Assembly: GCF_000026545.1 (NCBI RefSeq)
Contig: NC_011601.1
From: Escherichia coli O127:H6 str. E2348/69
GTDB taxonomy: Bacteria > Pseudomonadota > Gammaproteobacteria > Enterobacterales > Enterobacteriaceae
Direction: 5' to 3' (one strand)
Length of the DNA: 64,000 nucleotides
In this document: in pieces, positions 57,476 to 58,136 of the stretch
How positions within the stretch are numbered: the stretch's first letter is position 1
How the letters are laid out: the number at the start of each line of letters is the position of its first letter
The notes under the pieces: generated by a model
Told to the model about the DNA's origin: nothing
Databases searched by the model: none
What the model saw: only the letters and a program-made list of their open reading frames with translations
Program-made: the position numbers and the translations under genes

Positions 57476-57503
57476 ATAAAAAATCGCCCTCACATTAGAG
57501 GGC
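57476..57503 (-). terminator. intrinsic terminator between the 156-aa moron and the 122-aa gene
   Basis: Minus-strand hairpin gccctc-taatgt-gagggc followed by gatttttt. Confidence 0.7.
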
Positions 57504-57607
57504 AAAGAAGATTTCCAATAATCAGAACAAGTCGGCTCCTGTTTAGTTACGAGCGACATTGCTCCGTGTATTCACTCGTTGGAATGAATACACAGTGCTT
57601 ATTCGTA

Positions 57608-58078
57608 CTAATAAAACACCCAATTTTCTGTTTCTTGGTTGTGTCCAAAGTTATATTCAATATCTGGTGTTGATGTATCAATATTCTTCATCCCATCAAC
57701 AAGAGTTGATACAACAGCCAAATCTTGTTTGATTCTCATCAAATGGTATTTCTTTCGGCGCAATAAACTTTCAATGGCAAGTTTCTTCGTCGGGAATGCA
57801 AAAGATCTTTCTGCATTTTTTGCTACTTTCTTAATTGCATATCTATTTCTCCTTTGTTTCCATTCCTGTAACCACTGATTTGGTGCTGGTTTAAAATTAA
57901 CAATCCAATGCGCAGGAACCAACCATGCATAATGCTCTGTCTGATGAAAAGCTATATATTGAAGTGCGAATATTTTGATCCCATCTTCTTCAACTGTCGC
58001 CTGGAATCTCCAGAAAACAGGCATTCCATCATGTTCAGTTTCTGATTCAGGAAAAGGTACGCTCCATGATTTTGTCAT
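57608..58078 (-). CDS. orphan 156-aa protein (moron in the ral/sieB slot)
   Basis: ORF MTKSWSVPFPESETEHDGMPVFWRF... with RBS gaggtgag; about 38% GC; no TM segment; no motif I recognise. Confidence 0.65.
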   Translation of the reverse strand: MTKSWSVPFPESETEHDGMPVFWRFQATVEEDGIKIFALQYIAFHQTEHYAWLVPAHWIVNFKPAPNQWLQEWKQRRNRYAIKKVAKNAERSFAFPTKKLAIESLLRRKKYHLMRIKQDLAVVSTLVDGMKNIDTSTPDIEYNFGHNQETENWVFY

Positions 58079-58136
58079 ATCTCACCTCAAATAAGTGGTT
58101 TGCTGCCTAATTTCATTTTCTGGCGACCAACACAAG

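Follow-up and report, generated by a model that had tools for sequence, protein, structure and literature searches.

What is a small, AT-rich gene doing directly behind the antiterminator gene N of a lambdoid prophage, in the place where phage lambda carries ral and sieB? The question is raised by a 64,000-nucleotide stretch of DNA from Escherichia coli O127:H6 str. E2348/69 (contig NC_011601.1), called the window here and numbered from its first letter. In it, a gene for a protein of 156 amino acids lies on the minus strand at 57608..58078; the gene and its protein are both referred to as X. A preliminary description, made from the letters of the window, had taken X for an orphan and, together with the terminator behind it, for a moron cassette. 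The reading that we favor, with a probability of roughly 0.6 for the explanation as a whole, is a different one: X would be part of a mosaic module driven by the phage promoter pL, would be expressed early in the lytic cycle, and would act as a nonenzymatic binding protein, possibly in counterdefense. The features on which this reading turns are the following.

57608..58078, minus strand: X, 156 amino acids from an ATG start at 58078; counterpart of HK97 gp45, 933W L0079, and phi24B vb_24B_11c; PHROG 1636.
58088..58081, minus strand: Shine-Dalgarno sequence GAGGTGAG of X, ending 2 nucleotides (nt) short of the X start codon (58078), as seen in the sequence itself.
57566..57593, minus strand: perfect 12-bp hairpin GUGUAUUCAUUC-CAAC-GAGUGAAUACAC, between the stop codon of X and the 5' end of PreS; identical in lambda and HK97.
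57478..57564, minus strand: predicted copy, 87 nt long, of the small RNA (sRNA) PreS (LPR1), from alignment to lambda, with its 5' end taken from a cloning primer of the preprint on PreS (P810).
57478..57505, minus strand: intrinsic terminator, the homologue of tL2a; stem TTGCCCTC-TAATGT-GAGGGCGA at 57505..57484 (8 pairs), followed by T6 at 57483..57478.

Is X an orphan, as first claimed? Judged by alignment, it is a member of a catalogued, though unstudied, family, that of HK97 gp45, 933W L0079, and PHROG 1636. The match to PHROG 1636 runs from end to end (residues 1 to 156 of 156; expect value [E], 2.7e-112), a remote match to PHROG 13631 follows (E, 8e-06), and X shares 99.4% amino acid identity with HK97 Gp45. 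Taken together with 933W L0079, BP-4795 ORF18, phi24B vb_24B_11c, and many phages carrying Shiga toxin 1 (Stx1) or Stx2, the identity ranges from 99.4 to 100%. X is present in 597 of 5426 complete E. coli genomes (11%, or about 1 in 9), at 832 places, and always under the label "hypothetical protein" (WP_000167595.1). Farther afield, full-length homologues with 55 to 85% identity are found in Cronobacter, Pectobacterium, Brenneria, Rosenbergiella, and Symbiopectobacterium, and Salmonella phage NX263 and Escherichia phage Bas81 carry homologues that are 62 to 64% identical. An exhaustive HMMER search brought in further relatives, 106 to 155 amino acids long and 19 to 33% identical to X in the alignment, the remote ones residing in phages and prophages of other genera, e.g., Vibrio and Pantoea. 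Searches with the predicted structure (Foldseek) found the fold in uncharacterized proteins of Erwinia, Achromobacter, Delftia, Sinorhizobium, Rhizobium, Tenacibaculum, and Cellulophaga phages and also in Pseudomonas, Pantoea, and Ferrimonas genomes. All family matches are stand-alone proteins of 106 to 169 amino acids that lie, in the contexts examined, in the early regions of phages or prophages. The survey of homologue neighborhoods proposed in the preliminary description accordingly placed none of them in a housekeeping context. A literature search by gene names and accessions returned no study of the X protein or of its named copies. For a lambdoid mosaic genome, the locus shows no anomaly.

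Comparison also indicates that the X reading frame codes for a real, constrained protein. Among 20 full-length homologues at 55 to 85% identity, 40 columns are invariant and the only indels are short (1 to 3 residues in one loop, plus end extensions). In addition, 29 nucleotide alleles of X from E. coli prophages show 21 synonymous differences to 1 nonsynonymous difference, a ratio biased by the selection of the loci for protein identity. Much of what the preliminary description had said about the gene itself is borne out. X does lie directly downstream of N on the pL transcript, in the slot where lambda carries sieB, orf28, and ral with N upstream. The 58-nt spacer between N and X contains the ribosome-binding site (RBS) GAGGTGAG, a strong one, as claimed, and homology to lambda restarts about 10 nt past the X stop codon. 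The protein (about 18.6 kDa; isoelectric point [pI], 9.1) is indeed free of transmembrane or hydrophobic segments (grand average of hydropathy, -0.59), has the basic central stretch that had been noticed (net charge of +13 over residues 61 to 120), and matches no motif or family of recognized function. The gene is also AT-rich, at 36.5% guanine plus cytosine (GC) instead of the figure of about 38% first given, compared to 50.0% for the window and 48.7% for N. X does not stand alone in its low GC, since ea10, the next gene, has 38.2%.

What about the terminator? The preliminary description had placed a textbook terminator just before the RBS of the next gene and had assigned it to X. The first part stands, in that the 8-bp stem and T6 end about 20 nt before the ea10 ATG at 57457, but the second does not, because the element is the tL2a/PreS of lambda and is present there without X. 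In lambda, the interval between ral and ea10 encodes an Hfq-dependent sRNA, LPR1, renamed PreS, which is about 88 nt long and is processed to about 68 nt; the classical terminator tL2a supplies its hairpin and U-tail at the 3' end, and the sRNA activates the translation of dnaN and aids lytic growth (bioRxiv 10.1101/2024.10.31.621285). By alignment, 57478..57564 is a copy of PreS ending at tL2a. Window positions 57598..57037 are 97.9% identical to lambda positions 34045..33483 (BLASTN), a block that spans the hairpin, the terminator, and ea10 and that is preceded by ral in lambda. Within it, the sole differences between the PreS copy and lambda are 2 substitutions located in the terminator loop. 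The M1-tested seed TTGTTCTGATTATT is unchanged, and the 5' end, placed from the preprint primer, is at GAGCAATGTCG. The GC-rich 8-bp stem with T6 gives the copy the 3' end expected of an Hfq-type sRNA. Folding of 57474..57607 yields -47.1 kcal/mol (z = -6.3), with the terminator hairpin present in both the minimum-free-energy and the centroid structures. A terminator scan returned 4 terminator-like sites in 2.2 kb compared to 2.3 +/- 1.5 in shuffled sequences and is weak evidence taken alone; the strong evidence for the terminator is its identity with lambda tL2a. Rfam 15 has no family for the PreS region. The 12-bp hairpin is the first element of the block common to the window, lambda, and HK97. 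It stops 2 nt before the PreS 5' end and might set that end or shield the upstream mRNA at its 3' terminus.

PreS is more widespread than X. The element occurs in 2233 of the 5426 complete E. coli genomes (41%) at 3190 places, about 4 times the number for X. At most of these places, the RefSeq annotation is "none." The order in HK97 is gp45, the 12-bp hairpin, PreS, and then cIII directly, without ea10; PreS is thus conserved as an element in its own right, with a mosaic junction at either end.

Do X and PreS nonetheless travel together? A locus search with the alignment of close homologues returned only copies with the identical protein. In the 80 E. coli prophage loci from IMG/VR that were examined, PreS lies downstream of X in all 74 with enough downstream DNA, with the N allele, ea10, and cIII varying around them. 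In 43 loci, homology to the window ends 135 to 150 nt past the X stop codon, where the PreS T-run comes to its end; in about 26, it continues through ea10. The upstream junctions cluster about 30 to 45, 80, and 135 nt before the X ATG. As delimited by these alignments, the moving unit in E. coli is shown to consist of the RBS, X, the hairpin, and PreS/tL2a, a mosaic module of the lambdoid pL operon. The idea of a gene-plus-terminator cassette thus survives insofar as the two move as a mosaic unit in E. coli but not insofar as it meant an independent moron.

Such tight linkage could be explained if X were a functional partner of PreS that stabilizes, processes, or delivers it. The 74 of 74 loci and the single mosaic unit that X and PreS form would follow from such a partnership, and a basic protein makes RNA binding plausible. 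Nevertheless, PreS works in lambda without X (bioRxiv 10.1101/2024.10.31.621285), its 3190 places in E. coli genomes far outnumber the 832 of X, and no PreS-like sequence was found near the homologues in Pectobacterium, Brenneria, NX263, or a Vibrio phage. Cronobacter, the sole genus besides E. coli with a PreS-like sequence among the homologue loci checked in other genera, has the element upstream of the gene. We regard the partnership as highly improbable.

The Cronobacter element merits a brief description of its own. In a Cronobacter malonaticus prophage (locus L004, about 4880..4990), a diverged PreS-like element stands upstream, not downstream, of the gp45 homologue. Its core reads ACAGGAG.CGA..GAC.TGTTCTG.TTA, and it includes a GCCCTC...GAGGGC-T8 terminator; a second terminator comes after the gene.

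When, and from which promoter, is X expressed? The neighboring features on the pL strand bear on this question.

58628..58600, minus strand: promoter pL, TTGACC-17-TACTAT, from a promoter scan of 56800..59000.
58526..58553, minus strand: nutL, made up of boxA GCTCTTTAA at 58553..58545 and the boxB hairpin GTCGA-ACTC-TCGAC at 58539..58526, from reading of the sequence and a hairpin scan.
58137..58409, minus strand: antiterminator N, 90 amino acids from an ATG with a GGGAGG RBS; PHROG 271, N-like, E 1.1e-24.
57089..57457, minus strand: ea10 (DUF2528), PHROG 646, with 97.9% nucleotide identity to lambda and inside the lambda-shared block; cIII and then kil follow (minus strand).

In the scan for sigma-70 consensus sites over 56800..59000, pL (58628..58600) is the only promoter-like site upstream of X on the minus strand, and none was found between pL and X. 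That X is "promoter-less," as the preliminary description put it, is therefore confirmed, and the scan shows X to be without a recognizable promoter of its own. Nor does a terminator-like site separate N from X. With no intrinsic terminator between the two, the first that RNA polymerase would meet is tL2a. X would be transcribed from pL directly after N, on a single pL-N-X transcript that first stops at tL2a. N, X, and PreS would together constitute the earliest leftward transcript, and PreS would in effect be the 3' untranslated region of X.

Published data from a phi24B lysogen are consistent with such an arrangement. RNA sequencing (RNA-seq) after norfloxacin treatment found vb_24B_11c, which encodes the identical protein, to be up 43-fold (P = 0.273), and the same P value of 0.273 is given for exo (98-fold), bet (89-fold), gam (137-fold), and ssb/ea10 (79-fold) (PMC4651098, SI Table 4). 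Genes of the cI operon were flat (stk, 1.8; res, 1.2; 13c, 0.65; 12c, 3.6) (PMC4651098). The shared P value and the size of the change fit cotranscription from pL and argue against expression from the repressed prophage. X would be a lytic-cycle gene rather than a prophage-expressed one.

These results bear directly on the moron claim. Morons carry promoters of their own and are expressed in the prophage state; X, as a moron or superinfection exclusion cassette, would protect the lysogen as sieB does or otherwise benefit the host. The sieB slot is consistent with such a role, as are the deviating base composition (36.5% GC against 50.0% for the window, itself a moron feature) and the compactness of a unit that, in E. 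coli, travels together with a terminator; terminator-like hairpins flank both sides of the homologues in Cronobacter, Pectobacterium, and Brenneria. Against these stand the other three of the four features tested. (i) No promoter-like site lies between pL and X. (ii) The terminator is the shared tL2a/PreS, found in lambda without X and at 3190 places in E. coli genomes compared to 832 for X. (iii) The phi24B RNA-seq data group X with the induced pL genes and not with the constitutive cI-operon genes, although this last point comes from the literature on phi24B (P = 0.273) and not from this strain. Exclusion fares no better. SieB-type exclusion proteins are membrane proteins, and X has no transmembrane segment. 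SieB-type exclusion was accordingly rejected as a candidate, there being no hydrophobic segment in X and no PHROG or PADLOC match to exclusion or defense proteins. Moreover, relatives occur in Pantoea phage LIET2 and in Bas81, the latter apparently drawn from a virulent-phage collection, and protection of a lysogen would be meaningless if these phages are virulent. The moron label is thus not upheld, and a prophage-expressed protective role for X is quite improbable.

If X is an early lytic protein, what kind of protein is it? AlphaFold, supplied with 20 close homologues, gave a predicted local distance difference test score (pLDDT) of 60.4; with 35 sequences, including remote ones, the pLDDT rose to 94.8, with a predicted template modeling score of 0.81. 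The model has a long three-stranded sheet (residues 19 to 30, 33 to 46, and 50 to 55), two short helices, a short strand (83 to 86), a helix of 33 residues (98 to 130), and a conserved C-terminal tail. This alpha/beta fold is confidently predicted, and the model matches no solved structure. Foldseek searches of BFVD and AFDB50 returned only uncharacterized phage and prophage proteins, two of them labeled "transposase" without support. The remote-homology and structure searches suggested in the preliminary description thus led to uncharacterized phage and prophage relatives and to no known fold or family. Pfam gave nothing below an E of 0.008 for X or any of the 35 members, NCBIfam gave no match to X, and PADLOC gave for X only Cas1_II at an E of 0.018, which is noise, and no defense model.

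Several more specific candidates were tried and rejected. (i) PNRC2, suggested by a PDB sequence profile (E, 0.0076), is a low-complexity match to basic residues. (ii) A GIY-YIG nuclease, also from a PDB profile (E, 0.21), would call for the catalytic Tyr/Arg/Glu/Asn residues and the GIY-YIG fold, which X lacks. (iii) An AP2 or integrase-type DNA-binding domain, suggested by an F-x-T-x-E-E-A-like motif, received an hhalign probability of 0.2%. (iv) A DNA-mimic antirestriction protein of the Ocr or ArdA type would be acidic, and X is basic (pI 9.1), with all 35 members neutral to basic (7.7 to 9.9).

More can be gleaned from conservation. Positions conserved in at least 80% of the 35 aligned members make up a hydrophobic and aromatic core, along with R24, R76, K83, K87, R108, and T47 (Thr or Ser); no Asp, Glu, His, or Cys is conserved among them, and no genuine domain fusion was found among the family matches. 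Because the conserved polar positions are basic apart from T47, and because the family has neither fusions nor a conserved neighbor, we infer that X is a stand-alone, nonenzymatic binding protein. Early in infection, its conserved basic surface would contact either the phosphate backbone of a nucleic acid (DNA or RNA) or a host protein of acidic character, perhaps to neutralize a host function or defense, the same general job that ral has in the corresponding slot of lambda.

The contexts of the homologues in other phages are varied. In Pectobacterium, in Brenneria, and in a metagenomic temperate phage (loci L002, L003, and L097), the gp45 homologue immediately precedes xis (or AlpA) and int and is not beside N. 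In NX263 (L012, 3931..4477), it is the first gene of a small operon, followed by a ParB-like gene, two small open reading frames (ORFs), and a RusA-like gene, all lying among structural genes; a sigma-70 promoter with 10 of 12 consensus positions (TTGACG-17-TATAGT) stands directly upstream. Bas81 (L095, 3501..3977) has the same gene order. The last gene of this operon is called "DNA polymerase III beta subunit" in the NX263 record, and its Bas81 counterpart is RusA-like. In other phages, the relative stands first or second in an early operon, and some relatives are placed beside replication modules. Across 10 loci, the family has no conserved neighbor beyond generic lambdoid genes.

Could X then work on phage DNA, as an accessory factor in recombination, replication, excision, or early transcription, and not antagonize the host at all? 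A DNA-binding factor of this sort would account for the conserved basic surface, for the xis/int placement in three lineages, for the ParB-like and RusA-like neighbors in NX263 and Bas81, and for the placement next to replication modules. It is unlikely all the same, given that no neighbor is conserved across contexts, that X has no similarity to any known DNA-binding fold, and that it is absent from lambda and many lambdoid phages and so must be dispensable for the core functions.

What points toward the host instead? Within a few genes of remote family members lie Gad2, Lar, and a DNA methyltransferase gene (L007, 3380..4297; L100, 5800..6090; L096, 2465..3181), with one relative two genes away from a Lar-family gene and others near DNA methyltransferases. 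Together with the ral slot and early expression, these neighbors of some relatives give a weak hint of counterdefense or host takeover. The most specific form of the idea is that X is a restriction alleviation protein of the Ral/Lar type, which would let phage DNA without the modification escape by modulating type I restriction-modification enzymes. X replaces ral exactly, upstream of the shared PreS block, and is expressed early, and the Lar and methyltransferase neighbors are in keeping with it. Similarity is nowhere to be seen, however: neither X nor the 35 members match any Pfam family, PF14354 included, and the PHROG matches are to families of unknown function only. X has 156 amino acids compared to 66 for Ral, more than twice the length, and as a basic protein it is no DNA mimic like Ocr or ArdA. 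phi24B has lar in addition to X, and position alone is a weak argument in a mosaic genome. A Ral/Lar-type activity is, in our estimation, rather improbable.

The broader reading of X as a pL-driven, early lytic, nonenzymatic binder has points against it as well, and these keep its probability well short of certainty. Nucleic acid binding is inferred from charge and conservation only, and no experiment or homology ties the X protein to any activity. With lar present besides X in phi24B, a simple role as a "Ral analogue" would be redundant. On the side of expression, the promoter scan was limited to sigma-70 consensus sites, Rho-dependent termination may, on sequence alone, occur between N and X, and the change in vb_24B_11c (P = 0.273) is not significant by itself. 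The placement at the xis/int end in Pectobacterium, Brenneria, and the metagenomic phage means that an immediate-early position is not universal in the family. Finally, the signal from antidefense neighbors comes from about 5 of 12 contexts, is uncontrolled, and is drawn from too small a sample to count as an association.

One may speculate further that gp45/L0079 is the founder of a family of early proteins with a new fold that disable a host defense or function through binding to nucleic acid or to a host protein and that, in Stx and HK97-type phages, it joins N and PreS in a three-part "first strike" unit. This proposal is tentative, and we would sooner bet against it than for it. If it is true, the first pL transcript delivers an antiterminator, a protein effector, and an sRNA effector together.

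Why should such a gene matter? About one complete E. coli genome in nine has it, and the carriers include the Stx phages 933W, phi24B, BP-4795, and Min27 as well as the model phage HK97. Its slot is where lambdoid phages keep accessory functions directed at the host, and together with expression among the earliest genes, this makes X a good candidate for a new host takeover or counterdefense activity; the genetics of HK97 and phi24B make it tractable. The annotation can also be corrected, in that the conspicuous terminator after X is the PreS sRNA, which is without annotation in the records examined. Any deletion or "cassette" swap that takes out the terminator would cost the phage an sRNA that boosts its replication.

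Some observations on neighboring genes may be recorded here. The boxA of nutL (GCTCTTTAA) is near the rrn-type consensus, and its boxB has a 5-bp stem and a 4-nt loop, as in N systems of the 933W/phi24B type; the phi24B record annotates nutL at the matching relative place. Many phage records call ea10 (57089..57457) "ssb" or "single-stranded DNA binding protein," and the Prokaryotic Genome Annotation Pipeline calls it DUF2528. A separate ORF of 168 amino acids at 55273..55779 reads like a true single-stranded DNA-binding protein, with an acidic DDDIPF C terminus. Downstream of cI, in the rexAB slot, a DinD-like protein of 280 amino acids is encoded at 58848..59690 on the minus strand, with its own GC-rich terminator at 58839..58822. 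It scores 198.6 bits against NCBIfam DinD, below the cutoff of 242, and matches the PADLOC defense candidate PDC-S13 at an E of 2e-86. It is a better candidate for a prophage-expressed defense gene than X.

How, then, does X compare with the systems it resembles? With the morons HK97 gp15 and lambda bor and lom, it has in common that it is an accessory unit, compact and AT-rich, which sits at a mosaic junction and closes with a terminator. It differs from them in lacking its own promoter, in sharing its terminator, and, according to the phi24B data, in not being expressed from the repressed prophage. With lambda ral and sieB, it has in common the slot between N and the PreS block and the status of an accessory, nonessential gene, but neither sequence nor size is similar. 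Lambda sieB, with a promoter of its own, acts in the lysogen, whereas X lacks any promoter-like site and behaves like a gene that is induced. The likeness to lambda PreS/tL2a is far closer, for the tested seed, the GC-rich hairpin, the U-tail, the upstream 12-bp hairpin, and the place before ea10 are all shared; the upstream gene is ral in lambda and X here. In lambda, a further terminator, tL1, follows N, and here no terminator-like site stands between N and X. The closest likeness is to HK97 gp45, 933W L0079, BP-4795 ORF18, and phi24B vb_24B_11c. HK97 has cIII directly downstream and annotates a putative terminator at the matching place, and 933W has ea10 as its downstream neighbor, as here; what all four share with X is both the protein and its place between N and PreS/tL2a.

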